A stretch of 64,000 bases of DNA from Candidatus Doudnabacteria bacterium (GCA_016218585.1 JACRDK010000030.1:24277-88276); one strand, 5' to 3'. Shown: positions 2,958-20,457, counted from the stretch's first letter. Notes: generated by a model not told the origin, from the letters alone. Made by a program: numbers and translations.

Positions 2958-5900
2958 ATGAACAACATTTTTTCTAAGTTAAGCATAAAGGTCTCTGGCG
3001 CAATTGGCGTTTCAATTTTTTTGGTTGCCATCGCCGTAATCGGTTTGGCTCCTAGACAAGCCACCATTAGCCGTGCTGATGGTTGCAGTCCGGTTTACAC
3101 CTCGCCGGTTTTTAACCCGTACCCTGTTACCTGGGAAGATTCCGCAGGTTATAACTGTACGGATTTTGCCGTTCTTTCCGGTAATGTCCAAGGCGCAGGT
3201 TTTTGGACTGATAATTTTCAGGCCCAGCCAGGCGACAGTATTAGCATGAGAATTTACGTGCACAACGGCGCGGGCAGCAATTCCGGCGCAGTTATGTACG
3301 GTGTTAATGTTAATACCAATATAGATACCACAACCGGAACCAGCCACGTAATTACTACTACTTTAAGCGCCAGCAATGCCGCTTCTAAAAGCGGTAGTGT
3401 GACTATTAATACTCCGGCCGGCAGCCACTTGGAATTAGTTTCCGGTGATACCAGCTTTGCGGTTGGCGATATGCAGCCGTGCTTTGAGTATTCGAAAGCT
3501 TTTCGGTTTACTTTGAAAGTCGTTGCTGATACTGTTGTTACTCCTCCTCCGGCAGAAACTGTAAGCGGGCAAATTTCCTCTTCTTTGGGAATTTGTAAAG
3601 CCAATGGCTTATACGATGCTAATGTTTCCTGGAATACTAACGCTTCCCAGGCCTTAGTCACTGTTTCCGATCCGAATTTAAACTCCGGCAACTATTACGA
3701 CAATGACAAAGTTTATAGCTACAGCAAAACTAGCAATGAAACCGCAAGTTGGTTAGCTCCTAATACCGCTTACCGTTTTACTTTGTGGTCAATTGACCCA
3801 AGCGGTACAGACCATAGCTTCCGCGACTTAAGCAATAACATTGTTAATGTTAAAGCTGTAAGACTTTATGAAACTTGGGTAACCGCCGGCGCTTCTTGCA
3901 GCCAGGTTACGCCTCCTCCGGCTAATGTTACCGGAACTATTTCCACTTCTCTTGGTATTTGTAAAGCCAATGGTTTATACAATGCCAACGTTTCCTGGAA
4001 TACCAATGCCACTCAAGGTTTGGTTACTGTTTCTGATCCTAACTTAAAATCCGGAGACTACTACGATAACGATAAAATTTATAGCACAGCCGAAACCAGC
4101 AACGAAACTGCTGATTGGTTAGCTCCGTTAACAGCATATCGCTTTACTTTGTGGTCAATTGACCCAAATGGCGTTAGCCACACTTTCCGCGATATGAGCA
4201 ACAATGTTGTAACTTACAAAGTTACCCGTTTGCAGGAATCTTGGGTAACCGCCGGCGCTTCTTGCGACCAGGTTACTCCTCCTCCGGCTAACATTACAGG
4301 AACTATTAATTCTTCTCTTGGCATTTGTAAAGCCAATGGTTTGTACAATGCCAACGTTTCCTGGAATACCAACGCGACTCAGCCGCTTGTTACCGTAAGC
4401 AACCCGCCTGCTAATTCCAATAATAACTACGACAACGATAAATTTTATAGCACCACTAAAACCGGTAATGAAACTGCTGATTGGTTAACCCCAAATACAG
4501 CTTATCGCTTTACTTTGTGGGCTATTGACCCAAATGGCGTAAACCACACTTTCCGTGATTTGAACAATAACGTTGTAACTTACAAAGTTACTCGTTTGCA
4601 GGAAACTTGGGTTACAGCCGGAAATACTTGTATAGATAACCCGCCGACTTATGAAAATGTTGTTTGTAGCGTAAGCCCATCTAACTTAAATGTTGGCCAG
4701 AGCGCTACCTTTACCGCAGACAAAGGCAATGGTACTTATGCTTGGTCTGTTACTGGAGGCTCAGTAACTTCCAGCAATCAAAAAACATTTATTAGCACCT
4801 TCAACAACGCCGGGGCATATATTGCCACCGTGTCCAGCAACGGCAAAACCGCCAGCTGTACTGTTCAGGTAGTTAATGACAATGTTTGTGTAGCAAACAC
4901 CAACTATTATTTAAACGCCACCGCTCCTGCAAAACAAGGAACGGGGTATACTGTAAAATTATCTTGGGGTTTTGATGGTAATCATCAAATTAAATTAACC
5001 CAGGTAAGCTCGGACGGTAGCGAATTAACTTTGGCTACCAGCCCGGACAAAACCGGAAGTTTAAATGTCTTTAATTTACAAGCAGGTAAAACTTATACAT
5101 TTAAAATGTATGATATTGACCCGACTTGTGGAAAGTTTTTAACTTCAACTCAGGTTGTAGTTCAGTCAAATCCGGATCAGTTAGTCTGTACATCCGATAG
5201 CTCTTCCTATAGAGTCGGCGACACCGCTGTCTTTAGAGCCAATGGCGGCAGCGGCAGTTATTCCTGGTCCGGCACCGGCAACCCGGTTTCCGGCACCGGT
5301 TCAGTATTTAATACTTCTTACAACACCGCTGGTAATAAGACTGTTACTGTAACCAGCGCCGACGGGCAAACCGCTCAGTGTAGCACAGTTGTTAATACTG
5401 TTGTTACTGAAAACGGCCAGGTTCGCTTAACCAAAGAAGTAAGAAACATCACCAACAGCGAAACTGCTTTTGCCCACGCGACCTCCGCCAAGCAAAACGA
5501 CACTGTTGAATATCGCATTAAAGTTTGGGCCGGCACTTCCGTAACCTTAACTAATGTTATAGTCAACGACAGCTTTGCTTCCGGTCTTTCTTACATAGAT
5601 AACTCTTTATTTGTAGACGGCACATCTCACGCGGCTGGTTTAACTTCCGGCGGCCTTACCTTTACTTCCGTTGGCCAAACGCCGTTGGTAATTATTTACC
5701 GCGCTAAAGTTACCGCCACTATGGGAACTATTGTAAACACCGCCCAGGCTGTAGCTTCCAACGCTACCAACACTGCTGTTGACCAGGCTTTGGTAAATGT
5801 TGCTTATGTTAATCCGGGACAGCCTTCCTTGTCTATTATTAAACAAGTGAAGAATGTTACCCAGAACACCAACTATGATACTTCGGTTTTGGCTAATAAA

Positions 5901-7289
5901 AATGACGTTGTTAAATACCAGGTCATTATAAAAAATGTCGGCCAAGCTACCGCCAAGAATGTTTTCTTTAACGACAGCAATCCAGCCCAGGTCCAGCCGT
6001 TAACCGGCCTTACTGTCTCCATTGCTTACACCGGCGGCATTCCTGCCGGAGTTGCTTTGGGTGATTTAGCCGCAGGCGCTACCGTGACTATTACTTATCA
6101 GGGAACTGTGAAAGTTGACAGCGGCACTATATTAAACGTAGCCACCGCTTCTTCCGACAACGCAACCAGCCAGAATGCTTCCGCAACAGTAGTTGTTAAT
6201 ACTCAAAACAACAACGGCGGCAACAGCAACTACAACTATTGCGTTAACTATTCCTGCAATACCACAATCAACAACACTACAAACACAACCAACACCACAA
6301 CCACAAATAATAACTACACTTACAACAACTACAGCTACGTTTACATTAACAGCACCGGCAATACTGTACCGGCTAATCAATATAGCCAGTTAAGCATTAC
6401 CAAATCTGTTAGAACTGTAAATAATGGTACTTACCAAAACAGCGTAAACGTAAACAATGGCGATACCGTTGAGTTCGAAATTGTGGTTACTAACTCCGGC
6501 AATCAAAACATAAACAATGTCCGCTTAACCGACAATTTGCCGAGCGGCTTGAATCTGGTAAACGGCAGCGTGCGCGTAGACGGATCTTACGTCTCCAGCA
6601 GCAACCTTTACAGCGGAATGTATTTGGGCAGTTTGTCTACCGGCCAGCAAAAGCGCATTAACTTCCAGGCCACAGTAAACAATTCTAATTCCAGCATTCA
6701 AAATATTGCTATGGTTTCCGGCGACAACGCTTCTTCCGTTCAGGATGATGCCTGGGTGTTTACAAATACGGGTTCTGTCCAGGGCGGCAATGTAAGCCTT
6801 ACTTACAGCAAGCGCGCCATTAACGAAACCAAGAGCCAGGACGCGACTTCTGTAGTTGCCTCCAAGGAAGATTACATTACCTACACCTTAACCGCTTCCA
6901 ACAACGGCAACACTCCGGCCAACAACTTCATTATTACCGATGATTTGTCCCAGGTCTTGCCATATGCCGACATTGTCGACAACGGCGGCGGCAGCGTGAA
7001 CGGAAATGTAATTTCCTTCCCGGGCCTTACTGTTCCGGCTTACGGATCTGTTTCCAGAAGCTTTAAAGTTAGAGTTAAATATTCTTTGGCTGATAACTTG
7101 GCCTATGTTATGACTAATACTTACGGCAACACCTTAAATATTAGAATTAATAACCCGCAGGTTTTGGGAGCCTTTGTTGCTCCGAAGACCGGTGCGGAAA
7201 CCGGCGCCTTTGCTTTCTCCGGATTGTTAACCGCCGCCGCAGCCTTGTTTAAGCGCAGAAAAGAAATTCTAAAGTTAATCTTCACCTAA
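2958..7289 (+). CDS. Giant cell-surface protein (1443 aa): signal anchor, three tandem roughly 120-aa repeats, multiple DUF11-like conserved-repeat domains, Asn/Thr-rich low-complexity region, C-terminal tripartite sorting signal (APKTG/AETG motif, hydrophobic stretch, KRRKE tail)
   Basis: N-terminal TM IGVSIFLVAIAVIGLA. Three near-identical repeats TPPPA..SLGICKANGLY.ANVSWNTNA...AYRFTLWSIDP. DUF11-like units such as VEYRIKVWAGTSVTLTNVIVNDSF, VKYQVIIKNVGQATAKNVFFND and VEFEIVVTNSGNQNINNVRLTDNLP. C-terminus FVAPKTGAETGAFAFSGLLTAAAALFKRRKEILK resembles LPXTG/LAXTG-type cell-wall sorting signals. Confidence 0.85.
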   Translation: MNNIFSKLSIKVSGAIGVSIFLVAIAVIGLAPRQATISRADGCSPVYTSPVFNPYPVTWEDSAGYNCTDFAVLSGNVQGAGFWTDNFQAQPGDSISMRIYVHNGAGSNSGAVMYGVNVNTNIDTTTGTSHVITTTLSASNAASKSGSVTINTPAGSHLELVSGDTSFAVGDMQPCFEYSKAFRFTLKVVADTVVTPPPAETVSGQISSSLGICKANGLYDANVSWNTNASQALVTVSDPNLNSGNYYDNDKVYSYSKTSNETASWLAPNTAYRFTLWSIDPSGTDHSFRDLSNNIVNVKAVRLYETWVTAGASCSQVTPPPANVTGTISTSLGICKANGLYNANVSWNTNATQGLVTVSDPNLKSGDYYDNDKIYSTAETSNETADWLAPLTAYRFTLWSIDPNGVSHTFRDMSNNVVTYKVTRLQESWVTAGASCDQVTPPPANITGTINSSLGICKANGLYNANVSWNTNATQPLVTVSNPPANSNNNYDNDKFYSTTKTGNETADWLTPNTAYRFTLWAIDPNGVNHTFRDLNNNVVTYKVTRLQETWVTAGNTCIDNPPTYENVVCSVSPSNLNVGQSATFTADKGNGTYAWSVTGGSVTSSNQKTFISTFNNAGAYIATVSSNGKTASCTVQVVNDNVCVANTNYYLNATAPAKQGTGYTVKLSWGFDGNHQIKLTQVSSDGSELTLATSPDKTGSLNVFNLQAGKTYTFKMYDIDPTCGKFLTSTQVVVQSNPDQLVCTSDSSSYRVGDTAVFRANGGSGSYSWSGTGNPVSGTGSVFNTSYNTAGNKTVTVTSADGQTAQCSTVVNTVVTENGQVRLTKEVRNITNSETAFAHATSAKQNDTVEYRIKVWAGTSVTLTNVIVNDSFASGLSYIDNSLFVDGTSHAAGLTSGGLTFTSVGQTPLVIIYRAKVTATMGTIVNTAQAVASNATNTAVDQALVNVAYVNPGQPSLSIIKQVKNVTQNTNYDTSVLANKNDVVKYQVIIKNVGQATAKNVFFNDSNPAQVQPLTGLTVSIAYTGGIPAGVALGDLAAGATVTITYQGTVKVDSGTILNVATASSDNATSQNASATVVVNTQNNNGGNSNYNYCVNYSCNTTINNTTNTTNTTTTNNNYTYNNYSYVYINSTGNTVPANQYSQLSITKSVRTVNNGTYQNSVNVNNGDTVEFEIVVTNSGNQNINNVRLTDNLPSGLNLVNGSVRVDGSYVSSSNLYSGMYLGSLSTGQQKRINFQATVNNSNSSIQNIAMVSGDNASSVQDDAWVFTNTGSVQGGNVSLTYSKRAINETKSQDATSVVASKEDYITYTLTASNNGNTPANNFIITDDLSQVLPYADIVDNGGGSVNGNVISFPGLTVPAYGSVSRSFKVRVKYSLADNLAYVMTNTYGNTLNIRINNPQVLGAFVAPKTGAETGAFAFSGLLTAAAALFKRRKEILKLIFT
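3540..4620 (+). repeat. Three tandem roughly 360-bp direct repeats, highly similar at nucleotide level, inside the giant surface protein gene
   Basis: Repeat starts at about 3540, 3900 and 4260 all read gttac(t/g)cctcctccggc...ggaactatt...tctcttgg(t/c)atttgtaaagccaatgg(t/c)ttatacaatgc; the protein units are about 120 aa each. Confidence 0.8.
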
Positions 7290-7670: not shown

Positions 7671-8846
7671 ATGGACAACACATACTTGCAGGAGCTAATA
7701 AACGAAACCAAACTTCGGGGCGGCGGGTTATTGCTTAATTATGAAGATAAGCCGGCTGTGGTTGTTTTAACCGTGGATAAATATAACAGCTTGCTAGAGG
7801 GCCAAGAGTTAGGAATTAAGAATCAAGCGGTTGAAATTCAAACAAGCCCCAAGGCAGAACTAGCCAGTACCCAATCTGTAAAAAAAGTTTTGGTTACCGG
7901 GGGAGCCGGATATATTGGCGGGCATTTGGTTCGGGAGTTAATTAAGCAGAATTATGAAGTGGTGGTTTTAGACAATCTTTCCACCGGCCGCAGGGAGAAT
8001 ATTGATCCGAAGGCAATTTTTGTGGAAGGAGATTTAGCCGATGTAAATTTGCTCCGCGATATTTTTGCCAATAACAACATATCCGCGGTTTTTCATATGG
8101 CCGCCAGCCTGGAAGTGGAAGAGTCTGTTAGGGAACCGGAAAAATATTTTAAAAATAATACCCAAAACACTATCGGACTTTTAGAAGTTATGAAAGAGTT
8201 GGGGATTAACAAAATAATTTTTTCCTCAACCGCCGCGGTTTATGGCGAAAATGCCAAAGTTCCGATTAACGAAAACTCCCCGCTGCATCCCAATAATCCG
8301 TACGGCTCCAGCAAGCTGCTCACCGAAAGGAATATTAAATATTTTTGCGAGTACCTTGGTTTTAAGGCCGTAATTTTCCGCTATTTTAACGCCTGCGGTT
8401 TTGACGAAGAAGCCAATATTTTGCCGACCCACCAGTCTCACTTAATTTACAAAGTTATGCAGGTTGCCAAAGGAGCCGAACCGATTTTAAAAATTTTTGG
8501 CAACGACTACGAAACATTTGACGGTACCTGCATTCGCGATTATGTCCATGTGCTGGATATTGTCTTGCCGCATATTTTGGCTTTGGAAAAGTTAAATGGA
8601 GATTTGAAATTTGAAATTATAAACATTGGCACCGGCACAGGCTTAAGCGTTGCCCAAATTGTCAACGGAGCTTCAGAAATCATCGGCCGCATTATTCCCA
8701 TGGAAACCGCGCCGCGCCGCGCCGGGGACGCGCCGGCAACGGTTGCCGACAACTCCAAACTGGTTAACTTGCTGGGCTATGAGCCTAAATTTAGCAGCCT
8801 AAATAACATACTTACCAGCAGCTGGGAAGTTCTGAAAAAAGATTAA
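7671..8846 (+). CDS. galE: UDP-glucose 4-epimerase / NAD-dependent epimerase-dehydratase with a roughly 70-aa N-terminal extension resembling a Phd/YefM antitoxin fold
   Basis: Rossmann motif VLVTGGAGYIGGHLV, catalytic YGSSKLLTE (YxxxK), C-terminal epimerase domain. N-terminal KPAVVVLTVDKYNSLLEGQEL resembles YefM [20 protein letters not shown]. No in-frame stop or alternative start between extension and epimerase core. Confidence 0.85.
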   Translation: MDNTYLQELINETKLRGGGLLLNYEDKPAVVVLTVDKYNSLLEGQELGIKNQAVEIQTSPKAELASTQSVKKVLVTGGAGYIGGHLVRELIKQNYEVVVLDNLSTGRRENIDPKAIFVEGDLADVNLLRDIFANNNISAVFHMAASLEVEESVREPEKYFKNNTQNTIGLLEVMKELGINKIIFSSTAAVYGENAKVPINENSPLHPNNPYGSSKLLTERNIKYFCEYLGFKAVIFRYFNACGFDEEANILPTHQSHLIYKVMQVAKGAEPILKIFGNDYETFDGTCIRDYVHVLDIVLPHILALEKLNGDLKFEIINIGTGTGLSVAQIVNGASEIIGRIIPMETAPRRAGDAPATVADNSKLVNLLGYEPKFSSLNNILTSSWEVLKKD

Positions 8847-8856
8847 ATTCAAATTA

Positions 8857-8897
8857 AACACCCTTCATAACTATGAGGGGTGTTTAATTTTTTGAAA
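8857..8897 (+). terminator. Rho-independent terminator after galE
   Basis: taaacaccc ttcataactatga ggggtgttta followed by attttttg. Confidence 0.75.
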
Positions 8898-9026
8898 CAA
8901 ATTCACAAGGAAATCGTCATAATAGGAGCAGAGGTTTTTTCTATGTTATAATATATGCAAGGATTTCCTAAAATTTTGGGTAGCTTTGCCCGGGGTTTTA
9001 AGGGCTAGAATAATAAATATAACAAA

Positions 9027-9749
9027 ATGAAAAAACTTTCGGTTATTATACCGGCGTATAATGAAGAACATCGCATAGGCTCCACTTTGGGAGCAATTCA
9101 TAATTATCTTTCCAAGCAAAATTATGAATATGAAATTATCGTTGTTATTGATGGAGCCAAGGACAAGACCGCGGAAGTAGTTTCGGGCATGCAGAGCCAG
9201 ATAAAAAATTTAACGGTTTTAAATAACAAACAAAACCACGGCAAGGGCTGGGTGGTGCGCCAGGGGATGCTTCAGGCTGTTGGCGAGTATAGACTGTTTA
9301 CGGACGCCGACAATTCCACTTCCATTGAGCAAGTAGAAAAGTTTTTTCCGTTTATGAGCCAGGGTTATGATATTGTAATCGGTTCCATAGAAGTTGAGGG
9401 CGCGCAAATAAATGAACACGCCCAGTGGTATAGAAGGTTTTTAGGCCATTGGTCAAAGTTGTTAATTCGCGTGGTTGCCGGAGTCTGGCAAATTCACGAC
9501 ACCCAGCGCGGCTTTAAATTATTTACCGCTAAAGCTGCGGAAAGAATTTTTTTCCAGGCTAAGATTGACCGTTTTGGTTTTGACATAGAAATTCTGGCCG
9601 CTGCCGTAAAGTGCGGCTATAAAATTAAGGAAGTTCCGGTAGTGTGGAATAACGCCGGGGAATCGACAGTTAGTTTAAAAAGTTACCTTGAAGTTTTTAA
9701 AGATTTGCTTCGCGTAAGATGGTACTTATGGACCGGCAAGTATAAATAA
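9027..9749 (+). CDS. Family 2 glycosyltransferase (dolichyl/polyprenyl-phosphate sugar transferase-like)
   Basis: LSVIIPAYNEEHRI at N-terminus, DxD-type motif FTDADNS, typical GT2 (DPM1-like) architecture of about 240 aa. Confidence 0.85.
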   Translation: MKKLSVIIPAYNEEHRIGSTLGAIHNYLSKQNYEYEIIVVIDGAKDKTAEVVSGMQSQIKNLTVLNNKQNHGKGWVVRQGMLQAVGEYRLFTDADNSTSIEQVEKFFPFMSQGYDIVIGSIEVEGAQINEHAQWYRRFLGHWSKLLIRVVAGVWQIHDTQRGFKLFTAKAAERIFFQAKIDRFGFDIEILAAAVKCGYKIKEVPVVWNNAGESTVSLKSYLEVFKDLLRVRWYLWTGKYK

Positions 9750-9753
9750 TTTT

Positions 9754-11640
9754 ATGAAGTTTTTTAGCACACAGCACCAGCATAGTTTCCTTTCAAATTT
9801 GTTAGAAAGTGCGGCAAAGATTTTAAGCTTTGCCGCAGTTTTTGCGTTTATTGCCTCGCCGATTTTTCCCGTAAACTACGCGCTGGCGCAAAAATCCGAA
9901 ACCACTTATATGGTCAAATTAAAAACAGGATTCGGCGAAAACTTGTTAAGCAAAGTCGGCTCAAACATTCGCCACCGTTTTGTTTCCGCCGAGTCGCCGG
10001 TTTTTTATAATATTTATAGTTTTAGTTCCGGTTATTCAGCGGCAGTTTTAACGGACTATTTAAAAAATAAAGCGGAATATTTGGAAGAGCAAAAACCTTT
10101 AGCAGCTTCTTCCGTTTATGTGAACGATCCCGGGTTTTCCACCGATCCGTTAAATATTGATAAACAATGGGCTTTAATAAAGGCGGGTTTTGATAAAGCC
10201 TGGGAAAAAACCACCGGAAGCAAAAGCAATGTTGTGGCGGTAATAGATACAGGAGTAGACGAAACCCACCAGGACTTATCGGCAATTAATTTTGTAAAAG
10301 GTTTTAATTTTATTTCCAACCAGGAAATTGCCACAAGCACCAATTCGGACGACAACGGCCACGGAACATTAGTTACCGGCGTTCTTGGCGCCACCGCAAA
10401 CAACGGTTTGGGAATAATTGGAACCAACTGGCAGATTTCCGTTATGCCTCTTAAAGCGCTTGACGCAAACGGCAAAGGCGAAGCGGCGGATGTGGCCGAA
10501 GCTATTGTTTGGGCCACTGACCACGGCGCGCAGTTTTTAAATATGAGCATTGGCGGCATTGGCTTTGGCCATGACACTACTTTGGCTAACGCCGTTACTT
10601 ACGCCTTTAATAAAAATGTTTTACTGGTGGCGGCCGCCGGAAATGACGTGGCGGCAACAGGCAGCAATTTGGACCAAAGCCCGGTGTTCCCAATTTGCGA
10701 TGATAATAATTTTAATATGGTAATTGGCGTTTCCGCCAGCGATCAAAATGATTTAAAGCCGGACTTTTCCAACTACGGCAGAAATTGCATAGATGTAACA
10801 GCCCCCGGAAAAAGAATTTTGTCCACAATAAATTATGACCCGCTTACAAAAAAAGCATCGCCTAGTTCTTATGCCTATGCTTCCGGAACCTCTTTGGCAG
10901 TGCCTTTTGTGGTCGGCCAAGCCGCTCTAATAAAGGCGCTGTATCCGTTTGCTACTAATATTCAAATACGCGACCGAATAATTACCACTGCAGACCCAAT
11001 TGATAATTTAAATCTTACTCAGTGCGCCGGCGGCCCTTGCCGCGGCCTTTTGGGAACCGGAAGAATTAATGTTTTAAATAGTTTGCAGACCGCGATAGCC
11101 CAGGGGTATGCGGAAGGCGACTTGGTAAAGGAAGAAAGCACCGGGGCAATGTATCAAATAATTGGCGGGCAAAAAAGATTAATTTCCCCATTTGTTTACA
11201 ACCAGCGTTTCAGCGGTTCTAAATTAAAAACTCTTAGCGCCGGGGAATTGGCCTCTTTGCCGGACGGAAGCTATGTTACGCCAAACGACGGCACTCTGGT
11301 AAAGCTGGACTCCGACCCCACGGTATATGTTATTGCCAACGGACAAAAACAGCCCGTGTCGTATCAGGTTTTTTTGCAAAGAAAAATGAATTTTGCCAGC
11401 GTAAACACTTTAAGCTTTTCGGAAGTTAATTCCTGGATTACCGGAAGCTTTTATCCGCCGGAAGAGGGAACCTTGATAAAATCAGATAAAGATAAAACCG
11501 TTTATTGGGTTGTTGGCCAAACCTTGCACCCGATTAACTATGGATTTTTTATGGAGCGGGGTTTGAATGTTTTTCCAATCTTGGTAGTTTCTGAAAAAGA
11601 TATTGTCAGTTTTGCAAAAGGGGAGAGTTATATAAGATAG
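9754..11640 (+). CDS. Secreted subtilisin-like serine protease (peptidase S8) with N-terminal propeptide and three C-terminal roughly 58-aa repeats
   Basis: Catalytic triad motifs VIDTGVDETHQDL (Asp), HGTLVTGVLGA (His), GTSLAVPFVVGQAAL (Ser). Signal peptide. C-terminal repeats GTLVKLDSDPTVYVIANGQKQPVSYQVF... repeated three times. Confidence 0.9.
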   Translation: MKFFSTQHQHSFLSNLLESAAKILSFAAVFAFIASPIFPVNYALAQKSETTYMVKLKTGFGENLLSKVGSNIRHRFVSAESPVFYNIYSFSSGYSAAVLTDYLKNKAEYLEEQKPLAASSVYVNDPGFSTDPLNIDKQWALIKAGFDKAWEKTTGSKSNVVAVIDTGVDETHQDLSAINFVKGFNFISNQEIATSTNSDDNGHGTLVTGVLGATANNGLGIIGTNWQISVMPLKALDANGKGEAADVAEAIVWATDHGAQFLNMSIGGIGFGHDTTLANAVTYAFNKNVLLVAAAGNDVAATGSNLDQSPVFPICDDNNFNMVIGVSASDQNDLKPDFSNYGRNCIDVTAPGKRILSTINYDPLTKKASPSSYAYASGTSLAVPFVVGQAALIKALYPFATNIQIRDRIITTADPIDNLNLTQCAGGPCRGLLGTGRINVLNSLQTAIAQGYAEGDLVKEESTGAMYQIIGGQKRLISPFVYNQRFSGSKLKTLSAGELASLPDGSYVTPNDGTLVKLDSDPTVYVIANGQKQPVSYQVFLQRKMNFASVNTLSFSEVNSWITGSFYPPEEGTLIKSDKDKTVYWVVGQTLHPINYGFFMERGLNVFPILVVSEKDIVSFAKGESYIR

Positions 11641-11712
11641 GGGAAATATTTAGCATATAGCATATAGTATTTAGAATATAGGAGAGAGAATTTAGAATTA
11701 AGAGAGGAGTTT

Positions 11713-13566
11713 ATGAAAAAACAAAAGTACATAAAAATTATTTCCGGACTATTTTTGGTCGTCTTTCCATTTTTGGCAATTGCCCAATCGCCGGACCCAA
11801 ATTTTAATCCAAGCAAGCTTATTGAAGACAAAACTTTTTCCGACACCAAGACTTTTGGCGGCGCTGATGGCATACAAAAATTTTTGGTTGCCAAAAATTC
11901 CGTTCTGGCCAATACCAGCCCGGATTTTTTAGCTAAGCTTAAAGAGCCGCAATCGGTTATGTTAAAAGAAGGTTTGGGAGACCCGCAGCCAAACTTAGGC
12001 CGTTTGCGCACCGCGGCAGAATTAATTTGGGACGCTTCCATTCAGAGCGGCCTTAACCCGCAAGTTATTTTGGTTACCTTAAACAAAGAGCAGGGGTTAA
12101 TAACTTCGGCTAACGATTACGACGCGGCGCGCCTGCAAAAAGCTTTAGATCACGCTATGGGTTTTGATTGTCCGGACTCCAGCGGTTGCGGCAATCTTTT
12201 CCCGGGTTTTTATTTTCAGATTTTTGGCAACTACGATTCGGAAAATAACCGCTATTTAGGCGCGGCAAAATCGTTAATGAAATCTTTTACCACTGTTGGC
12301 GGAAGAGGCCCGGTAGTGGAAGGCGCGGCCGCAAAAGTTGGCCAGGCGATTACTTTAGACAACACTATGGGCGGGTATGAAAATATTATGCCGCAGCAAA
12401 CTTTTATTATTTCCAACAATGCCACGGCCGCGTTGTATCGTTATACCCCGCACGTCTTTAACGGCAACTATAATTTTTGGAAATTTTTTCAAGGCTGGTT
12501 TAAGTATCCAAACGGCACTCTGTTAAAACTTGCCGGCGGCGCGGATTTATACATTATTGAAAATGGCGTTAAGCAGTTGGTGCCGCAATTTGTGGCCCAG
12601 GCCAGGGCGCTAGATGTAAATTCTACCATTACGGTATCGCCAACGGAGTATGACAGCTACACCACAGACAAGCCTTTGGGACCGGTTGATAATACCGTTG
12701 TTCAGGACGCCAGCGGAACAAAGTATGTTTTTATTAGCAACGTCAGGCACCAGGCCTCGGATTTAGTTATTAAACAAAGAGGCTTGGATCCGGCAAAAAC
12801 TTTGAGCATAACCCCGACGGAAGCGGCAATTTTTGACGCCGGTTCGGTCTTGCCGCCTAAAGATGGAACGGTTATTCGCGGCGTTGCAGACCAAAGCGTT
12901 TACTTAGTTGCTAACGGACAAATTAAAATGTTTAGCGCATACACCTTTGCGCAAAATAAAATTAAAGCCAAAGATATTTACACAGTGCCCGACGCGGAAA
13001 TTGCCACCTATAGTAAAAATGGTTTTGTAGCTCCGCTTGACGGCAGCTTGGTAAAGACCGCCTCAAATGGTACGGTTTACTTGGTGGAAAATTCCTTAAA
13101 GCGCCCAATTTTGGCAGACATATTTAAAATTAGAGGGTTTAGCTTTAAAAACGTGAGTGCTATTTCGGAAGATGAAATGAGTTCTTTGCCGATTGGCGCT
13201 TATGCCACGCCGAAGGACAGAACGTTCTTTGCGGTTGATTCCAAAACCGGCCCCTTATATATGTTTAAAGAAGGAACTAAACACAGCATCTCCAGTTTTG
13301 TGGCCAAGCAGCGCGGCATAACTCCGGATTATGTTTTCAGCAACAGCGTGGCAATAGAATGGTATGACGGCATTCCTGTTCCGCCGGCTAACAACACAAT
13401 TATAAAAGGCGATTCCGACCAGACTGTATTCTTGGTTGTTAATGGACAATTAAGGCCGCTCACTTATCAGGCCTTTAAGAATCGCAAAATTACCGCAAAG
13501 AAAATTGTAACTTTGCCTCAAATCGAAGTTGACGCTTACGCCAAAGGCGATACTTTGACCAAGTAG
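11713..13566 (+). CDS. Secreted protein with unknown N-terminal domain and six copies of the same roughly 58-aa repeat found in the upstream S8 protease
   Basis: Signal peptide IISGLFLVVFPFLAIAQS. Repeats begin GTLLKLAGGADLYIIENG, NTVVQDASGTKYVFISN, GTVIRGVADQSVYLVANG, GSLVKTASNGTVYLVENS, RTFFAVDSKTGPLYMFKEG, NTIIKGDSDQTVFLVVNG, each ending in a ...P/PP boundary. Confidence 0.75.
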   Translation: MKKQKYIKIISGLFLVVFPFLAIAQSPDPNFNPSKLIEDKTFSDTKTFGGADGIQKFLVAKNSVLANTSPDFLAKLKEPQSVMLKEGLGDPQPNLGRLRTAAELIWDASIQSGLNPQVILVTLNKEQGLITSANDYDAARLQKALDHAMGFDCPDSSGCGNLFPGFYFQIFGNYDSENNRYLGAAKSLMKSFTTVGGRGPVVEGAAAKVGQAITLDNTMGGYENIMPQQTFIISNNATAALYRYTPHVFNGNYNFWKFFQGWFKYPNGTLLKLAGGADLYIIENGVKQLVPQFVAQARALDVNSTITVSPTEYDSYTTDKPLGPVDNTVVQDASGTKYVFISNVRHQASDLVIKQRGLDPAKTLSITPTEAAIFDAGSVLPPKDGTVIRGVADQSVYLVANGQIKMFSAYTFAQNKIKAKDIYTVPDAEIATYSKNGFVAPLDGSLVKTASNGTVYLVENSLKRPILADIFKIRGFSFKNVSAISEDEMSSLPIGAYATPKDRTFFAVDSKTGPLYMFKEGTKHSISSFVAKQRGITPDYVFSNSVAIEWYDGIPVPPANNTIIKGDSDQTVFLVVNGQLRPLTYQAFKNRKITAKKIVTLPQIEVDAYAKGDTLTK

Positions 13567-13590
13567 ATTAACAAGAGTTGTGAATAAATA

Positions 13591-13624
13591 ACCCCCCCAA
13601 GACAAGTATGTCTTGGGGGGTTTG
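13591..13624 (+). terminator. Rho-independent terminator (12-bp stem) after the repeat-protein gene
   Basis: acccccccaagaca agta tgtcttggggggtttg. Confidence 0.8.
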
Positions 13625-13694
13625 CTTTGACTTTATTGAGGTTTTATAATAAGATTTTGCTACGTTTAGATTTTCAAAAAGGAGGTGTAATCGA

Positions 13695-14282
13695 ATGATT
13701 GCACTGATTAGTGTTACTGACAAAACCGGCATTCAGGAATTTGCCGCCACCCTTTCAGCATTGGGATTCGATCTGGTTTCTACCGGCGGGACAGCAGACA
13801 CTCTTCGCCTCGCCGGGCTTAAAGTAAAAGATGTTTCGGAGCTGACGGGCGTGCCCGCAATGATGGGCGGCAGAGTGAAGACCTTGGATTACCACATTCA
13901 CGCCGGAATCTTGGCGGATCGGGACAATCCGGAGCACATGGCCGATGCCGCAAAGTATGGCATCGAGATGATTGACCTGGTTGTGGTTAACCTCTATGAT
14001 TTTTTGGGTACAGCGGAAGATCCGGATGTTTCTTTGCCGGAACTTACCGAAAGCATCGACATTGGCGGACACACTCTGGTCCGTGCCGCGGCTAAGAACT
14101 GGAAGCATGTCGGTGTGGTGGTTAACCTGCAGGACTACGACCGGATTTCTGAAGAGCTGGTGCAGCGGGGTGGCTGGTTGAGCAGCGGCACCAAGTTAAG
14201 TTTGGCCATTGAGGCCCTCGATGCCGTCGCTTGTTATGACAGGTCTATTCCAGACGTTCTCAGGGACCGTGCCGGCTACTAG
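13695..14282 (+). CDS. purH: Stand-alone IMP cyclohydrolase / MGS-like domain corresponding to the N-terminal half of PurH (AICAR transformylase domain absent); GC-rich, with degenerate conserved motifs, so a possible decaying horizontally acquired fragment
   Basis: ALISVTDKTGIQEFAATLSALGFDLVSTGGTADTL, GRVKTLDYHIHAGILADRDNPEH, VVVNLYDF, IDIGGHTLVRAAAKNWKHVGVVVNLQDY align to the PurH IMPCH domain (actinobacterial-type HAGLLAD). The conserved KTLHP and NLYPF motifs are altered to KTLDY and NLYDF. About 55% GC against about 40% in neighbours. Own promoter-like TTGACT/TATAAT and a strong SD aaggaggtg 7 nt before ATG. Confidence 0.8.
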   Translation: MIALISVTDKTGIQEFAATLSALGFDLVSTGGTADTLRLAGLKVKDVSELTGVPAMMGGRVKTLDYHIHAGILADRDNPEHMADAAKYGIEMIDLVVVNLYDFLGTAEDPDVSLPELTESIDIGGHTLVRAAAKNWKHVGVVVNLQDYDRISEELVQRGGWLSSGTKLSLAIEALDAVACYDRSIPDVLRDRAGY

Positions 14283-14305
14283 CAAATCACAGCAGTCTAT
14301 CTAAC

Positions 14306-14345
14306 AAAGCGGTTCCCGGAAATAGTGTTCGGGAACCGCTTTTGC
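14306..14345 (+). terminator. Rho-independent terminator after the purH-fragment cassette
   Basis: aaagcggttcccg gaaatagtgtt cgggaaccgcttttgc. Confidence 0.8.
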
Positions 14346-14385
14346 TATGTATTAGATTCACTAAAGGTGTGGTAAAATAAATGGT

Positions 14386-15825
14386 ATGAGTACACATATT
14401 AGTAAAAATATTTTTTGGCTGACGGCTTCGCGCTTGTTGGCTTTGGTTTTTTTGTTTGTCGCGTACACGAGGCTATTTCGTTATTTAGGGCCTTACTTTT
14501 CCGGACAGTACCAGTTTGTTTTGTCTTATGTCTTAATTTTTGCGACCATTGTCGACTTTGGCATCCAGCAGTTTATTACAAAAAAAATTAGCGAGGAACC
14601 GCAAAATACAAAAAAATATTTTCAGGATTTCTTCAGCTTTGAAGTTTTGGCCGCGGCAGGGCTGTATATAATTTTGGTGTCTTTGGCTTACTTTAAGGCC
14701 TACGACAGGGAAGTCTTTTACGCAATTTGCGTTGCGGGTTTGGGACTGGTGGCAAATGCCTTAACTTATCCGTACTTAGCGGTAATGGCCGCATTTCAGG
14801 ATATGCGCAAAGTGGCTTTAATAAACTTTTTAAATTCTCTGGTCAATATTGCCGTAATTTTTTCCGCTATAATTTTTCATAAGCATATTGTTTTTTTGGC
14901 CAGCGTGCAGCTGGTTTTTGGCCTGTTAGACTTAATTTTATATAGATTTTTTGTTACTAAACACTTGCCTGAGCCGGAAGTGCTTAAAGCCGTATTTAGC
15001 TTTAACTTAAAACCTATTTGGGAAATTCTGCGGCAGGGCTGGCCATTTGCTTTATTGGTTGGCTTTAGTGCGATATATAACCGCATCGATGTTTTGTTAA
15101 TTACCTTTTTAAAAGGTTTTGAACAAACGGGTTATTATACCGCGGCTTACAAAATTTTTGATCTGTTGGGCTTTTTTCCTTCCGTTGTATCTTATACTTT
15201 ATTTCCTTTCTTTGCCGGCTTAATGTCTAAAAAAGCATTGGGCGAAGTTAAAATTAATTTAGAAAAATATTTAAAGTTAATGATTCTGGCAGCGCTGCCA
15301 ATGGCGGTGGGCGGCAGCGTGCTTTCGGCTAAGTTAATTGCCTTAGTTGCCGGTCCGGAATACGCGCCGGCGGCTTCTGTGTTGGCAATTTTAATTTGGG
15401 CTCCGGCGATTCTGTTTATTTACATTCCCGCTAATTCTTTGGTCATTTCCCAACTGACCAAAAAAGCTTTAATGGTAACAGGGGCTAATGTGGTAATAAA
15501 TACAATCGGCAATTTGCTGCTCTTGCCCCATTACGGAATAAAAGCGGCGGCTATTATGACTGTTGTTTCCGAAGCCTTGCAGGGGATATTTTATTTTTAT
15601 TTCATTAGAAAAAATATTACACACTTCAGCTTTAAAGGTTTGTGGGCAAAACCATTGCTGGCCGCCGCGGTAATGGGAGCTTGTTTGTGGCCGCTAAGGC
15701 AATTGCCCCTGGTTTACACCATACCGGTCGGGGGAGCGGTTTATTTAATCATGTTATTGCTTACCGGATTTGTCGGCAAAGCCGATTTGGCCATGGCAAA
15801 AAATTTAGTTAAGCCGGCAAATTAA
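14386..15825 (+). CDS. Polysaccharide biosynthesis flippase (Wzx / MOP superfamily), multi-pass membrane protein
   Basis: 479 aa with about 12-14 predicted TM helices; N-terminal SRLLALVFLFVAYTRLFRYLGPYFSGQYQFV typical of the Polysacc_synt family. Confidence 0.8.
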   Translation: MSTHISKNIFWLTASRLLALVFLFVAYTRLFRYLGPYFSGQYQFVLSYVLIFATIVDFGIQQFITKKISEEPQNTKKYFQDFFSFEVLAAAGLYIILVSLAYFKAYDREVFYAICVAGLGLVANALTYPYLAVMAAFQDMRKVALINFLNSLVNIAVIFSAIIFHKHIVFLASVQLVFGLLDLILYRFFVTKHLPEPEVLKAVFSFNLKPIWEILRQGWPFALLVGFSAIYNRIDVLLITFLKGFEQTGYYTAAYKIFDLLGFFPSVVSYTLFPFFAGLMSKKALGEVKINLEKYLKLMILAALPMAVGGSVLSAKLIALVAGPEYAPAASVLAILIWAPAILFIYIPANSLVISQLTKKALMVTGANVVINTIGNLLLLPHYGIKAAAIMTVVSEALQGIFYFYFIRKNITHFSFKGLWAKPLLAAAVMGACLWPLRQLPLVYTIPVGGAVYLIMLLLTGFVGKADLAMAKNLVKPAN

Positions 15826-15830
15826 ACTCT

Positions 15831-16286
15831 ATGCAAAAGAAAAATAATTCACAAACTCGCATTCTGGTTTTTGGCACCTTTGACGTTATGCACCCGGGAC
15901 ATATAAATTTTTTTAAACAGGCCAGAAAGCTGGCAAAAAATCCTTACCTAATAGTTTCGGTAGCCAGAGACGCCAATGTAAAAAGAATAAAAGGGAAAAA
16001 GCCTTTTATGAAAGAAAGCCGAAGGCTGGAACATTTGAAAAAAAATAAATTAGTGGATTTGGCGGTATTGGGAGGCAAAAATCAGCACCTGCCACATATT
16101 GTTAAACTTAAGCCCGACTTAATTGCTTTGGGTTATGACCAGAAAGCTTATGTGGATAATTTGCGGGAGGATTTGCTTAAGCTTGGCTTAAAAGTAAGAA
16201 TTAGGCGTATGAAAGCCTACAAACCGAACTTTCATAAGAGCAGCTTGCTTAAATTGAGAAAGCCTAGTAATTATGTTATTCTTTAG
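15831..16286 (+). CDS. Cytidylyltransferase-like nucleotidyltransferase (HxGH-motif family; FAD synthetase / glycerol-3-P cytidylyltransferase-like)
   Basis: ILVFGTFDVMHPGHINFF carries the (H/T)xGH signature; small alpha/beta protein of about 150 aa; located inside a glycan-synthesis cluster. Confidence 0.7.
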   Translation: MQKKNNSQTRILVFGTFDVMHPGHINFFKQARKLAKNPYLIVSVARDANVKRIKGKKPFMKESRRLEHLKKNKLVDLAVLGGKNQHLPHIVKLKPDLIALGYDQKAYVDNLREDLLKLGLKVRIRRMKAYKPNFHKSSLLKLRKPSNYVIL

Positions 16287-16408
16287 ACAGGTGAATTAAA
16301 ATAGACAATATGCCCAGTCTGAAGTGCTGTGGCTAAATATAATAAGTCTTAATTAAAAACAAATAATATAGGAGCATCCCAGTTTTTTTCGGGGATGATG
16401 TACTGCGT

Positions 16409-16648
16409 ATGGACAATATAAAAAATGGCGAAAAAGCCAAATGGAGCAAAAGTTTTTGGCCATTGGCAATAATTGTTATTGTAAGCATGATAGCCGGCGG
16501 TGTAATTTACTCCTTTGCTTACCAAAGCATGCTAAATGACGATATTAGTTCCATGCAATTTTTAATCCATCGTGATCGCCAGGAAAAACCAACTACAACC
16601 CCCGCCGCCAAGTCTGATGTAATGACAGCAAAGAAACCTGCCAAATAA
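16409..16648 (+). CDS. Small hypothetical single-pass membrane protein
   Basis: 79-aa ORF with one TM segment (PLAIIVIVSMIAGGVIYSF); preceded by a hairpin (catccc...ggggatg) abutting the start codon. Confidence 0.4.
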   Translation: MDNIKNGEKAKWSKSFWPLAIIVIVSMIAGGVIYSFAYQSMLNDDISSMQFLIHRDRQEKPTTTPAAKSDVMTAKKPAK

Positions 16649-16656
16649 ACTACCTT

Positions 16657-16700
16657 ATCCGCCCCGCCCTTTACTTTAAAAGAGCGGGGCGGATTTAATT
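16657..16700 (+). terminator. Rho-independent terminator
   Basis: atccgccccgccc tttactttaaaag agcggggcggatttaatt. Confidence 0.8.
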
Positions 16701-16737
16701 TGGTTAACCGGCAAGTTTTAGATATAATATAAGTAGT

Positions 16738-17823
16738 ATGACTATTGGAATTGAAGCAGAGCGAGCCAATAATCCCTTTAAAACCGGCGTGGAGCATTAT
16801 GCCAAACAGTTAATTCTCCACTTAGCCGAGTTAGATAAGGAAAATAATTATATTCTGTATTTGCGCACCAGACCCGAAACCTGGTTTTTTGAGTTGCCTA
16901 AAAACTTTACGGTAAAAGTTTTGCCTTTTCCTCTGTTTTGGACGCAGCTCCGGCTGAGTTGGGAAATGTTTTGGCACCCCGTTGATGTATTATTTATTCC
17001 CGCTTCCGCTATGCCGTTAATCCATCCAAAAAATTCCATTACCACAATTCATGATTTAGCCTGGAAGTTTTACCCGGAAAGTTTTACCTGGTTTAATAGA
17101 AATTTTTTGGAATTTTCCACCAGATTTGCGGTTAAAACCGCCAAGAACATTATTGCCGTTTCTCAGAGCACAAAGAACGATCTGGTAAAATTTTATAAAA
17201 TTCCGCCTGAGAAGATAACCGTAGTTTTGCACGGTTATGAAGAAAGCAAACATCACGAAGTATTTAGCGGAGAAGGCGAGATAAAAAATTTGCCGGAAAA
17301 GTACGTTTTGTTTCTATCCACGCTGCAGCCGAGAAAAAATTTGGAAGGATTAATAGATGCCTTTGCGCTGCTTAAGCAGGAACACCCGGAATTGCCGCAC
17401 AAGCTGGTTGTGGTTGGGCGGCCGGGGTGGAAGTTTGAAAGCATTCTGGATAAAATTAACCGGCACAAAGATTTCGTCGTTTATTTAAATTATTTGTCGG
17501 ACAGTGATCGCCTGGAAGTTTTAGCTAAAGCGGAGATTTTGGTCCAGCCTTCTTTTTACGAGGGCTTTGGCATGCAGATACTGGAAGCTTTTTCTCTCCG
17601 TGTTCCTGTGGCAACATCTAATGTTTCAAGCATGCCGGAAGTTGCCGCCGAGGCCGCTATGTATTTTGATCCGCATAATCCAAAGGATATAAAAAATTCC
17701 CTGAAAATGATGTTGATGGATAAAAGCCTTCGGGATTCGCTGATTGCCAAAGGAAGCGAAAGGCTAAAAGGTTTTAGCTGGAGGAAATGCGCCCAGGAAA
17801 CCCTTGCTGTTTTAAAAAAATAA
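16738..17823 (+). CDS. Family 4 (GT-B) glycosyltransferase
   Basis: EGFGMQILEAFSLRVPVATSNVSSMPEV, a classic GT4 EX7E-region motif; about 360 aa. Confidence 0.85.
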   Translation: MTIGIEAERANNPFKTGVEHYAKQLILHLAELDKENNYILYLRTRPETWFFELPKNFTVKVLPFPLFWTQLRLSWEMFWHPVDVLFIPASAMPLIHPKNSITTIHDLAWKFYPESFTWFNRNFLEFSTRFAVKTAKNIIAVSQSTKNDLVKFYKIPPEKITVVLHGYEESKHHEVFSGEGEIKNLPEKYVLFLSTLQPRKNLEGLIDAFALLKQEHPELPHKLVVVGRPGWKFESILDKINRHKDFVVYLNYLSDSDRLEVLAKAEILVQPSFYEGFGMQILEAFSLRVPVATSNVSSMPEVAAEAAMYFDPHNPKDIKNSLKMMLMDKSLRDSLIAKGSERLKGFSWRKCAQETLAVLKK

Positions 17824-17834
17824 TTACATAAAAA

Positions 17835-19418
17835 ATGAACGAAGAATTTTTAAAAAGATTAAAAGCCTTGCCCAGGCTTAAGCTGTTAATAATTGTTTTT
17901 GTCGTGTGGCAGTATGTAAGTATTTTGGGAATGGCAATTCTAAATTGGTCTACGGCTTTAGTTTGGTTAAATTTGGGTTTGCTGTTAGCTTTTATTTTAC
18001 TTGCGCCAATTTATGAATCTTTGCTGCTGTTAGTTTTATCTATTCCTTTTTTTGTGGCAGTGCCTAACTCGAAATTTGACGCCCTGTCTATGTGGCGAAT
18101 TTTATATTTAGCCTTATTTGCGGTTTGGTTGGTGCGCGAGAAAAAATTAAAAATCCAGGGGATTATTTTTTTACCCTGGGACAAATATCTTGCCTGGTTT
18201 GCTTCGCTAGGCTTGGTGCTGGCTTTAATTTTTGGCAGCTTCCGCCTGGAAGCGGTAAAACAGGTTCTGTTTTGGCTGAATATTTATTTTTTGTATATCG
18301 TTTTAATTAATACCTTAAAAAGCAAACAGCAAATTTTTGAATTTATCCGCTACGCAATTTGGTCGCTGGCAATTATTGTGACCTTGGGGTTCACGCAGCT
18401 GTTCGGCACTTTTTTAACCAACCTAGATGTGTTTTGGGTGTATTGGGCGAATAATATTACCAAGCTATATTATGGCCAAAATTTTTCTTTAGTAGCTTTG
18501 TATTCTAATTCCTGGTTTTCTTATTATGGCGGCAGGGATTTAAGAATGTTCTCCATTATGCCGGACTCCCAGTCCTTCGCTTATATTTGTATTATTGCCC
18601 TGTGTATGGGAACCGCCTTAACCCGCAGCGTCTTTACGCATATTAAAAAATGGCTGTGGTCCGGCATTCGCTTTGCCGGGTTAGCCTTAATTCTTTCCGG
18701 CACCAGAGCCGTCTGGGTGGGGATGGCATTGCCATTTTTGGCTGTTGTTGCGGCTTATGCCAAAGGCATTCAAAAACACCTGGTAAAAAAATATATGTGG
18801 CCGTTTGCCATAATTTTCATCCTGTTTATTATTTCCCCATTTATTAACAAAGCTTTGGGATATTTGCGGGTTGAAAGATTTCAGGAAAATTTTCTGGAGC
18901 GCGCCCAAAGCATTTATAACATTAACGAAACTTCAAATCGCGGCAGAATTGAAATGTGGCAAAATAGTTCGCTGTTCTTTTTAACCCACCCCTGGGGTGT
19001 AGGCTTTAGTAATTTTATTGTGTCATTTAACGAAGTGCAGGATGGCCAAAATTATAACCAGGTCGGCGAAAAATTGAACACCGCTTATAATTTACCGGCT
19101 AAATATATTTCCGCGCATAGTTTGTATCTGCAAATTTTAGTGGAAACCGGAATTGTCGGGTTTTTAATTTTTGCCGCATTTTGGACTTCGGTATTGCAGT
19201 ATCTCTGGCGTTTTATACGCCATTATGAAAAGACTGAAGATTTTTTGGTGTATTTTGTGGCCCAGGCCTTCTTAATGGTGTTGTGGATTTTAGCTTCCGC
19301 AGTTTTTGACATAACTTTATTAAATGACAAAGTGTTAATGTATTTTTTAATTAACCTAGGGCTAGCCGGCTTAATTGTTAAACGCTATCAGGAATACAAA
19401 GAAGAAGGCGAAGTCTAA
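17835..19418 (+). CDS. O-antigen ligase / polymerase-like (Wzy_C-type) polytopic membrane protein
   Basis: 527 aa with about 10-12 TM helices and a large loop containing GTRAVWVGMALPFLAV, similar to the O-antigen ligase family. Confidence 0.6.
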   Translation: MNEEFLKRLKALPRLKLLIIVFVVWQYVSILGMAILNWSTALVWLNLGLLLAFILLAPIYESLLLLVLSIPFFVAVPNSKFDALSMWRILYLALFAVWLVREKKLKIQGIIFLPWDKYLAWFASLGLVLALIFGSFRLEAVKQVLFWLNIYFLYIVLINTLKSKQQIFEFIRYAIWSLAIIVTLGFTQLFGTFLTNLDVFWVYWANNITKLYYGQNFSLVALYSNSWFSYYGGRDLRMFSIMPDSQSFAYICIIALCMGTALTRSVFTHIKKWLWSGIRFAGLALILSGTRAVWVGMALPFLAVVAAYAKGIQKHLVKKYMWPFAIIFILFIISPFINKALGYLRVERFQENFLERAQSIYNINETSNRGRIEMWQNSSLFFLTHPWGVGFSNFIVSFNEVQDGQNYNQVGEKLNTAYNLPAKYISAHSLYLQILVETGIVGFLIFAAFWTSVLQYLWRFIRHYEKTEDFLVYFVAQAFLMVLWILASAVFDITLLNDKVLMYFLINLGLAGLIVKRYQEYKEEGEV

Positions 19419-19438
19419 TCTTTAATATCTATCAGAGA

Positions 19439-20425: not shown

Positions 20426-20436
20426 ATGAGTGGAAT
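20401..20436. repeat. 36-bp perfect palindrome gattccactcattcacgg/ccgtgaatgagtggaatc overlapping the stop codon of the GT2 gene
   Basis: Read directly; the reverse complement of the left arm equals the right arm; the TGA stop at 20423-20425 lies inside it. Confidence 0.7.
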
Positions 20437-20457
20437 CAGGGTTAAAAGTTATAAATT

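Follow-up and report, generated by a model that had tools for sequence, protein, structure and literature searches.

Two adjacent genes in a 64,000-nucleotide stretch of DNA from a Candidatus Doudnabacteria bacterium (GCA_016218585.1, JACRDK010000030.1:24277-88276; the whole stretch is hereafter called the window) encode a secreted S8 protease and, directly downstream, a secreted predicted wall hydrolase (the neighbour), and both proteins end in tandem copies of the same repeat. As judged from structure prediction, this repeat is a small independently folding domain of the same fold class as the repeats of EccB, a subunit of the type VII secretion system (T7SS), to which it is probably distantly homologous. 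It belongs to a family that is essentially confined to the Patescibacteria (candidate phyla radiation, CPR), with the addition of some actinophages. We consider it probable, though not certain, that the repeat is a modular tandem envelope-retention domain, which anchors secreted enzymes to peptidoglycan or wall-linked polysaccharide of the cell's own wall by avidity. The features of the two genes are as follows.

9754-11640, plus strand: open reading frame (ORF) of the secreted, thermitase/subtilisin-like S8 protease, 628 amino acids, with three repeats at the C-terminus
10225-10995, plus strand: S8 catalytic domain (Pfam PF00082, amino acids 158-414, 157.5 bits, E 6e-46)
11101-11271, plus strand: protease repeat 1 (amino acids 450-506; 68.5 bits with the nine-repeat model; found unseeded)
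11272-11448, plus strand: protease repeat 2 (amino acids 507-565; the copy used for the AlphaFold model)
11449-11625, plus strand: protease repeat 3 (amino acids 566-624; 81.4 bits with the nine-repeat model; found unseeded)
11713-13566, plus strand: ORF of the secreted neighbour, 617 amino acids, with a signal peptide, a GH73/lysozyme-like domain and six repeats
11791-12495, plus strand: N-terminal domain of the neighbour, a predicted peptidoglycan glycosidase, lysozyme-like (GH73-type) (amino acids 27-261; invariant E126 in NKEQGL)
12496-12672, plus strand: neighbour repeat 1 (amino acids 262-320; 77.6 bits; strand-strand-strand-helix-strand-helix in the full-length model)
12673-12846, plus strand: neighbour repeat 2 (amino acids 321-378; 70.5 bits)
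12847-13023, plus strand: neighbour repeat 3 (amino acids 379-437; 81.1 bits; site of a partial, sub-threshold DUF7454 match)
13024-13200, plus strand: neighbour repeat 4 (amino acids 438-496; 77.9 bits; the best stretch of the phrog_9616 match lies at amino acids 431-489)
13201-13374, plus strand: neighbour repeat 5, the most divergent copy (amino acids 497-554; 69.7 bits)
13375-13551, plus strand: neighbour repeat 6 (amino acids 555-613; 86.4 bits; the protein ends 4 residues further on)

The initial annotation, which had been made from the sequence alone, described three repeats in the protease and six in the next gene. This count was confirmed with profile hidden Markov models (HMMs). A first model, seeded with the six neighbour repeats and one protease repeat, picked up both unseeded protease copies (independent E-values of 1e-8 for repeat 1 and 5e-12 for repeat 3), and with a model of all nine repeats every one of the nine copies scored 68-96 bits. 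With the latter model, residue-shuffled ORFs gave nothing better than E 0.38, and the 64-kb window contains no further repeat-bearing ORF, the other six-frame ORFs reaching no better than E 0.37. The repeat period is 58-59 amino acids, and the arrays occupy nucleotides 11101-11625 in the protease gene and 12496-13551 in the neighbour gene. The range originally given for the shared repeat, 10960-13566, covers both arrays, but it starts about 140 nucleotides before the first repeat and includes the non-repeat N-terminal domain of the neighbour (11713-12495). Pairs of the nine copies are 15-40% identical, and Tandem Repeats Finder (TRF) detected no tandem repeat at the DNA level in the coding repeats, which rules out a recent DNA duplication; the duplications that gave rise to the arrays are therefore ancient. 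The consensus proposed at the outset was recovered from 196 repeat instances in other proteins, in which the conserved positions are P/Y4, D6, G7, T8, L9, V/I10, K11, V18, Y19, G24, K/R26-27, S30, F34, R37, G38, E51, Y55 and G58.

An exhaustive HMMER search over 1.84 billion cluster representatives (50%-identity clusters) revealed a large family, with 2,838 cluster representatives passing E<=1e-3 and 888 of them also passing E<=1e-10. Family proteins carry up to 16 copies of the repeat. Arrays of 3-8 copies typically stop 3-4 residues short of the C-terminus, in proteins that begin with signal peptides. The named cellular matches all belong to the Patescibacteria, namely to the Doudna-, Parcu-, Pace-, Uhr-, Falkow-, Buchanan-, Brenner- and Portnoybacteria. 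Nearly all relatives are annotated at source as 'hypothetical protein', and none of these annotations names the repeat, which therefore has no independent functional name. The same is true for the neighbour itself, which is 100% identical to a 'hypothetical protein' of a Candidatus Doudnabacteria (Patescibacteria/CPR) metagenome-assembled genome at NCBI.

The fold of the repeat was predicted with AlphaFold2 from protease repeat 2 and an alignment of 86 diverse repeats. The resulting single-repeat model is confident, with a predicted local distance difference test score (pLDDT) of 90.7 and a predicted TM-score (pTM) of 0.72; in it, three antiparallel strands lead into a helix, after which come one more strand and another helix. 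The neighbour, modelled independently at full length (pLDDT 88.9, pTM 0.62), shows the same unit six times. In a structure comparison, the model scored 5.4 against mycobacterial EccB1, superposing at 2.1 Å over 50 of 59 residues with 22% identity; the corresponding values were 4.3 for 3L9A (a Streptococcus mutans C-terminal domain), 4.0 for the wall-binding domain of LysIME-EF1, 3.8 for PlyCB and 3.0 for the wall-binding domain of Lys170. EccB1, EccB3, EccB5 and LysIME-EF1 were also among the top 12 matches in Foldseek (probability up to 0.99, query-normalised TM-score of about 0.6, 25-28% identity), with PlyCB further down. The modelled repeat thus has the features of an EccB repeat, that is, about 50-57 amino acids folded into a beta-sheet of four strands plus a pair of alpha-helices, and its predicted fold is shared with the solved cell-wall-binding domains (CBDs) of phage lysins such as PlyCB and the enterococcal endolysin. 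Indeed, the EccB1 structure paper describes the EccB repeat as a four-stranded sheet with two helices, present in four copies, and notes its likeness to PlyCB (PMC4769845). The CBD of LysIME-EF1 likewise comprises a four-stranded sheet and two helices, and its tetramerisation is required for lysis (PMC7098653). PlyCB binds the polyrhamnose backbone of the streptococcal wall polysaccharide (bioRxiv 10.1101/2021.03.19.436156).

In sequence comparisons, a weak but repeated signal points to homology with the EccB repeats. The Pfam model PF05108 (T7SS_ESX1_EccB) matched 4 of 47 multi-repeat proteins with E-values down to 4e-10, where the E-value is a sum over repeats; the 39 bits obtained on these relatives are reached by the sum only, no single stretch passing by itself. 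Three of 87 diverse single repeats were also matched (best E 7e-4), and positions 9-59 of the repeat profile aligned in one stretch with repeat R1 of EccB1 at E 0.07-0.09 (E 1.1 for EccB3). PF05108 gave no match at E<=1 to either window protein, both of which thus stay below its gathering score. The likeness to PlyCB and to the CBDs of LysIME-EF1 and Lys170 is more distant. These proteins were not matched at E<=10 in profile searches of the PDB sequences, and a phmmer search of the PDB with a 16-repeat relative returned nothing. PDB matches to Pizza/NHL propellers and BurrH were rejected as homologues, being matches to single hairpins or helices of 15-20 residues that are summed over the repeats of the target.

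The arrangement of the repeats differs from that in all of these relatives. EccB (repeats R1-R4; PDB 3X3M, 4KK7, 5CYU, 6SGY and 7NP7) has an N-terminal transmembrane helix and a core domain placed between 2+2 repeats with quasi-two-fold symmetry. In the family described here, unlike in EccB, secreted enzymes bear 3-16 copies head to tail at the C-terminus, and neither the organisms nor the loci give any indication of a T7SS; the window proteins are built of a signal peptide, a catalytic domain and a C-terminal array, and their genes are flanked by glycan-biosynthesis genes rather than ecc or myc genes. PlyCB, which is the subunit of the streptococcal phage C1 lysin PlyC (PDB 4F87/4F88) that binds the wall, exists as an 8-kDa polypeptide of its own, assembles into an octameric ring and has polyrhamnose as its ligand. 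Unlike PlyCB, with which sequence similarity is undetectable, the repeats attain multivalency covalently, in tandem; one chain links 3, 6, 8 or as many as 16 copies, which are not assembled from separate subunits. In LysIME-EF1 (6IST/6L00) and Lys170 (7D55), which are phage-encoded and host-directed, the extra CBD copies arise by internal translation initiation and form a tetramer, and sequence identity to the repeat is about 6-13%.

Phages also carry the repeat itself. The PHROGs v4 family phrog_9616, of unknown function, models two tandem copies of it and matches the neighbour at E 2.8e-9 (amino acids 431-489) and the protease at E 0.0067. Among the multi-repeat relatives, it matches P0129 at E 2.8e-86 in 7 stretches and P0156 at E 1.8e-39. 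The family is represented by a 148-amino-acid hypothetical protein in about 120 Streptomyces phages with genomes of approximately 130 kb, an example being gp68 of Streptomyces phage Yaboi (NC_048730.1 51090-51536; L084 5947-6393). Its gene directly follows that of a giant minor tail protein and lies about 1.5 kb upstream of the holin gene. This stand-alone protein of two repeats has neither a catalytic domain nor an annotation, unlike the window proteins, which are enzymes with 3 and 6 copies. It could function as an accessory protein of the tail or, like PlyCB, as a separate subunit for wall binding.

The two enzymes of the window were then assigned from their non-repeat parts. The product of 9754-11640 is a subtilase of the S8 family, as it matches PF00082 and retains the complete Asp-His-Ser triad with D165 (DTGV), H203 (HGT) and S380 (GTS). 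Both it and the neighbour have a signal-peptide-like hydrophobic segment at the N-terminus, which in the protease is a signal or anchor segment at amino acids ~22-45. The closest PDB sequences to the protease are AK.1 protease, thermitase and subtilisins. Its best NCBIfam match is the mycosin model TIGR03921 with 177 bits against a cut-off of 278.75. Because this score is far under the cut-off, the nearest solved sequences are thermitase and subtilisins, and the flanks contain no ecc genes, we rejected a T7SS link through the protease and regard the mycosin-like match as generic. The N-terminal domain of the neighbour has no sequence match in Pfam (including Glucosaminidase, PF01832, and SLT), NCBIfam or the PDB. 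In the full-length model, it nevertheless adopts the lysozyme-like fold of GH73-type peptidoglycan glycosidases. Across 103 orthologues, E126 of the NKEQGL motif does not vary. It sits at the end of the modelled helix 116-127, and we infer from its conservation and position that it is a candidate catalytic acid. Accepting the model, the neighbour is a predicted wall hydrolase.

Examination of the domain partners of the repeat showed that such enzymes recur in other proteins of the family. Among 47 long repeat proteins, Pfam identified Amidase_2 (12 proteins), SpoIID (12), Peptidase_S8 (7) and Glucosaminidase (2), and occasionally RHS, PA14, Ig-like, CBM60 and dockerin domains; a second search added a secreted micrococcal nuclease (SNase) and PG_binding_1. 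Most partners are thus peptidoglycan-active enzymes, joined by other secreted enzymes that would gain from retention at the surface. In some Parcubacteria (P0297-P0299), the array is joined to a micrococcal-nuclease domain (SNase, PF00565), which suggests surface-retained nucleases that are of interest for nucleotide scavenging by CPR bacteria. Modules such as LysM, SH3b, CW_binding_1/2, SLH and GW follow the same logic, being present in variable numbers, in tandem and often C-terminally on different secreted hydrolases and proteases of one organism, to which they confer non-covalent retention in the wall. Their sequences and folds are unrelated to the repeat, with which they share no Pfam match.

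The pairing of protease and hydrolase is conserved. Relatives of the neighbour are present in at least 292 species-level genomes, and its homologues are 60-82% identical across many species, with a fixed number of six repeats in 115 of 120. We fetched 80 loci, about 61 of which contained a six- or five-repeat orthologue with enough upstream sequence for the gene order to be read. In all of these, down to 45% identity, an S8 protease with three repeats is encoded directly upstream on the same strand, two of the loci carrying a frameshifted protease gene. An eight-repeat subfamily of the neighbour (approximately 720-733 amino acids; 13 loci: L054-L059, L061, L064, L066, L067, L069, L077 and L003) never has the S8 protease upstream. 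In one of these loci (L003), the gene adjoins a two-component system instead. The labels Gammaproteobacteria, Acutalibacteraceae and Binatia on several eight-repeat contigs probably reflect mis-binning.

The pair is also embedded in an envelope-glycan biosynthesis cluster, as follows from the same gene order in the window and in an orthologous locus (L001; 65% identity) on a 1.2-Mb contig. Both contain, in this order, genes for a DUF11 giant surface protein, an epimerase, a GT2 glycosyltransferase, the protease, the hydrolase, a Wzx-like flippase, a cytidylyltransferase, a GT4 glycosyltransferase, Wzy_C and a GT2 glycosyltransferase. The features in question are the following.

7671-21363, plus strand: cell-envelope glycan cluster as defined with Pfam (epimerase, GT2, [protease, hydrolase], Wzx-like flippase, cytidylyltransferase, GT4, Wzy_C, GT2, GT2)
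13593-13620, plus strand: hairpin terminator-like site after the neighbour gene (12-bp stem, 8 of its pairs being G-C, and a T-rich tail behind it)

The GT2 gene at 9027-9749 ends 4 nucleotides ahead of the protease start codon (9754), and the GT2, protease and hydrolase genes are therefore probably co-transcribed, which probably ties the pair to envelope-glycan synthesis. The spacer between the protease and neighbour genes measures 72 nucleotides and is without a terminator-like hairpin. At 11647-11698 it contains an AT-rich tandem repeat with a period of 7/21 nucleotides (TAGAATA/TAGCATA, about 7 copies), which overlaps two promoter-like -10 matches and might provide the second gene with an internal promoter or a regulatory element. 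Upstream of the cluster, at 2958-7289, lies the gene for a 1443-amino-acid giant surface protein with DUF11, DUF7507 and bMG10-like repeats, and the equivalent position in L001 encodes a 1391-amino-acid DUF11/CLIPPER protein. Between the hydrolase and flippase genes, at 13695-14282, there is an ORF of 195 amino acids with an MGS-like domain and the first ~60 residues of AICARFT/IMPCHase (PurH). The otherwise syntenic L001 lacks this ORF, which therefore has the appearance of an insertion in the glycan cluster or of a purH-like gene that has been truncated there.

The initial annotation had suggested that the shared modules serve for anchoring or target binding, at the cell wall or a host surface. 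This view is supported by four independent lines of indirect evidence, namely the fold, the domain partners, the glycosidase fold of the neighbour and the conserved pair in the glycan cluster. The analysis itself showed the repeats and their large family, the predicted folds of the repeat (with related structures) and of the neighbour's N-terminal domain, the domain partners and the synteny; from these we infer wall binding as such, the nature of the polymer, the choice between the own wall and that of a host, and the substrate of the protease. Because the repeat folds like cell-wall-associated domains of phages and mycobacteria, it most likely tethers both enzymes to the wall. After export by the Sec system, an array would bind a repeating polymer of the envelope, either peptidoglycan or a wall-linked polysaccharide, and several weak sites in one chain would provide avidity. 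Phage lysins reach the same avidity by means of a ring of 4-8 separate copies. The module would thereby place two enzymes of one conserved operon on the same substrate, and the S8 protease with its three copies and the GH73/lysozyme-like glycosidase with its six would probably be a wall-remodelling pair of the autolysin type. In such a pair, the glycosidase would cut glycan strands, and the protease might have wall peptides or proteins associated with the wall as substrates, or might process the glycosidase. Given how well the pair is conserved and that it is syntenic with envelope genes of the cell itself, a housekeeping role in wall remodelling is favoured.

Several observations weigh against self-wall retention. 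In EccB, the nearest relative, the repeats are packed structural elements of a periplasmic assembly and are not demonstrably wall binders, and peptidoglycan binding by EccB was proposed, not demonstrated, by the authors of its structure (PMC4769845). Furthermore, the RHS, PA14, dockerin, CBM60 and Ig-like partners would fit roles as adhesins or toxins, for which a ligand other than the own wall is possible.

A bolder extension of wall retention, which we put forward tentatively and consider doubtful, is that the repeat is the patescibacterial counterpart of SLH-type modules. It would then recognise the polysaccharide made by the surrounding glycan cluster and act as a general non-covalent anchor of the CPR surface proteome, including hydrolases, proteases, nucleases and giant adhesins, and the EccB repeats and the two-repeat actinophage proteins would derive from the same wall-glycan-binding module. 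In a more radical variant of this proposal, the ligand would reside on a host cell and the pair would be a 'can-opener' of an episymbiont.

Independently of this proposal, the repeats might be directed at a host or prey, binding a glycan of its wall or surface, so that the pair would be a tool for attachment or feeding that opens the host envelope locally. CPR bacteria are commonly episymbionts, and the source organism is a member of the Patescibacteria. The repeat is also found on RHS, PA14, nuclease and giant adhesin-like proteins and, in phage genomes, beside tail genes. In addition, PlyCB and the CBDs of LysIME-EF1 and Lys170 all target the wall of a foreign cell (PMC7098653). However, modules for host recognition usually diversify fast, whereas the neighbour is unusually conserved in both sequence and repeat number, a pattern expected of a housekeeping autolysin, and its gene is syntenic with genes for the biosynthesis of the cell's own envelope glycan. 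We therefore regard a host-directed function as unlikely.

Alternatively, the repeats could form an EccB-like scaffold, packing together or on partners into a rigid stalk or an extracellular oligomer that possibly unites the protease and the hydrolase by contacts between repeats, without any binding to the wall. Every method placed EccB nearest among the solved relatives, and in it the repeats join in pairs by way of their first helices to form a continuous hydrophobic core (PMC4769845). PlyCB and the LysIME-EF1 CBD also self-associate (PMC7098653), and the pTM of the full-length neighbour model, which is fairly high for 617 residues, suggests a defined packing between repeats. Nevertheless, the central core domain of EccB and its 2+2 quasi-symmetric layout are missing from this model, and the repeated fusion to amidases, SpoIID and glucosaminidases together with a variable copy number at the C-terminus is a hallmark of wall-targeting modules. 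It should also be noted that self-association and wall binding are compatible, since PlyCB does both. A purely structural role thus appears rather improbable.

It is highly improbable that a classical curated family (SLH, LysM, CW_binding_1/2, SH3b, PG_binding or SPOR) or DUF7454 includes the repeat as a divergent member, in which case it would already be catalogued. No Pfam or NCBIfam model recognises the repeat, and NCBIfam gives nothing for the neighbour. The exclusion of SLH, LysM, CW_binding and SH3b in the initial annotation was correct, as these families, like PG_binding_1 and SPOR, were absent from Pfam searches at permissive thresholds with the two proteins (E<=1), the nine repeats (E<=10) and the 87 diverse repeats (E<=1); accordingly, there is no match to a well-known wall-binding family, the finding that had been named as evidence against a new repeat. 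DUF7454 (PF24253) has a model length of 59 positions, which equals the repeat period. It matched the neighbour with 19.5 bits, and four of six orthologues at 23.6-27.3 bits, all partially and one reaching the 27-bit gathering score; the other two gave no match. However, the match in the neighbour aligns amino acids 376-406 with profile positions 19-48 of 59, and thus covers only about 30 positions, out of register, in one of the six copies and below the gathering score, and not one of the 87 diverse repeats was matched even at E<=1. DUF7454 was therefore rejected as the family of the repeat, and it is essentially ruled out that the repeat belongs to a wall-binding family already in the catalogues.

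The repeat had also been presented as previously unrecognised. This holds with respect to Pfam and NCBIfam models and to source annotations, but the fold is known, there is weak sequence homology to EccB, and phrog_9616 exists. Both the fold and the logic of tandem wall-binding repeats common to hydrolases are already known; the very large CPR-centred sequence family without a curated model, the covalent tandem architecture and the probable homology to the EccB repeats are new.

A large part of bacterial diversity belongs to the Patescibacteria, whose surface proteins mostly carry the annotation 'hypothetical'. The family described here comprises at least 2,800 protein clusters that have remained unnamed in the curated libraries, and it marks secreted enzymes that are probably retained on the envelope. 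Naming and modelling the repeat would improve the annotation of CPR genomes and single out autolysins, surface proteases and nucleases. The covalent tandem array and the oligomeric ring of the phage lysins represent two routes to avidity with one fold, and the tandem-array design could serve the engineering of lysins. The recurrent fusion to peptidoglycan hydrolases provides independent comparative support for the proposed binding of EccB to peptidoglycan. If the SLH-type proposal were true, the common origin of the modules would be the first evidence from comparison for EccB as an anchor of the T7SS in the wall. For the Patescibacteria themselves, the ligand of the repeat represents a testable handle on the composition of the CPR envelope.

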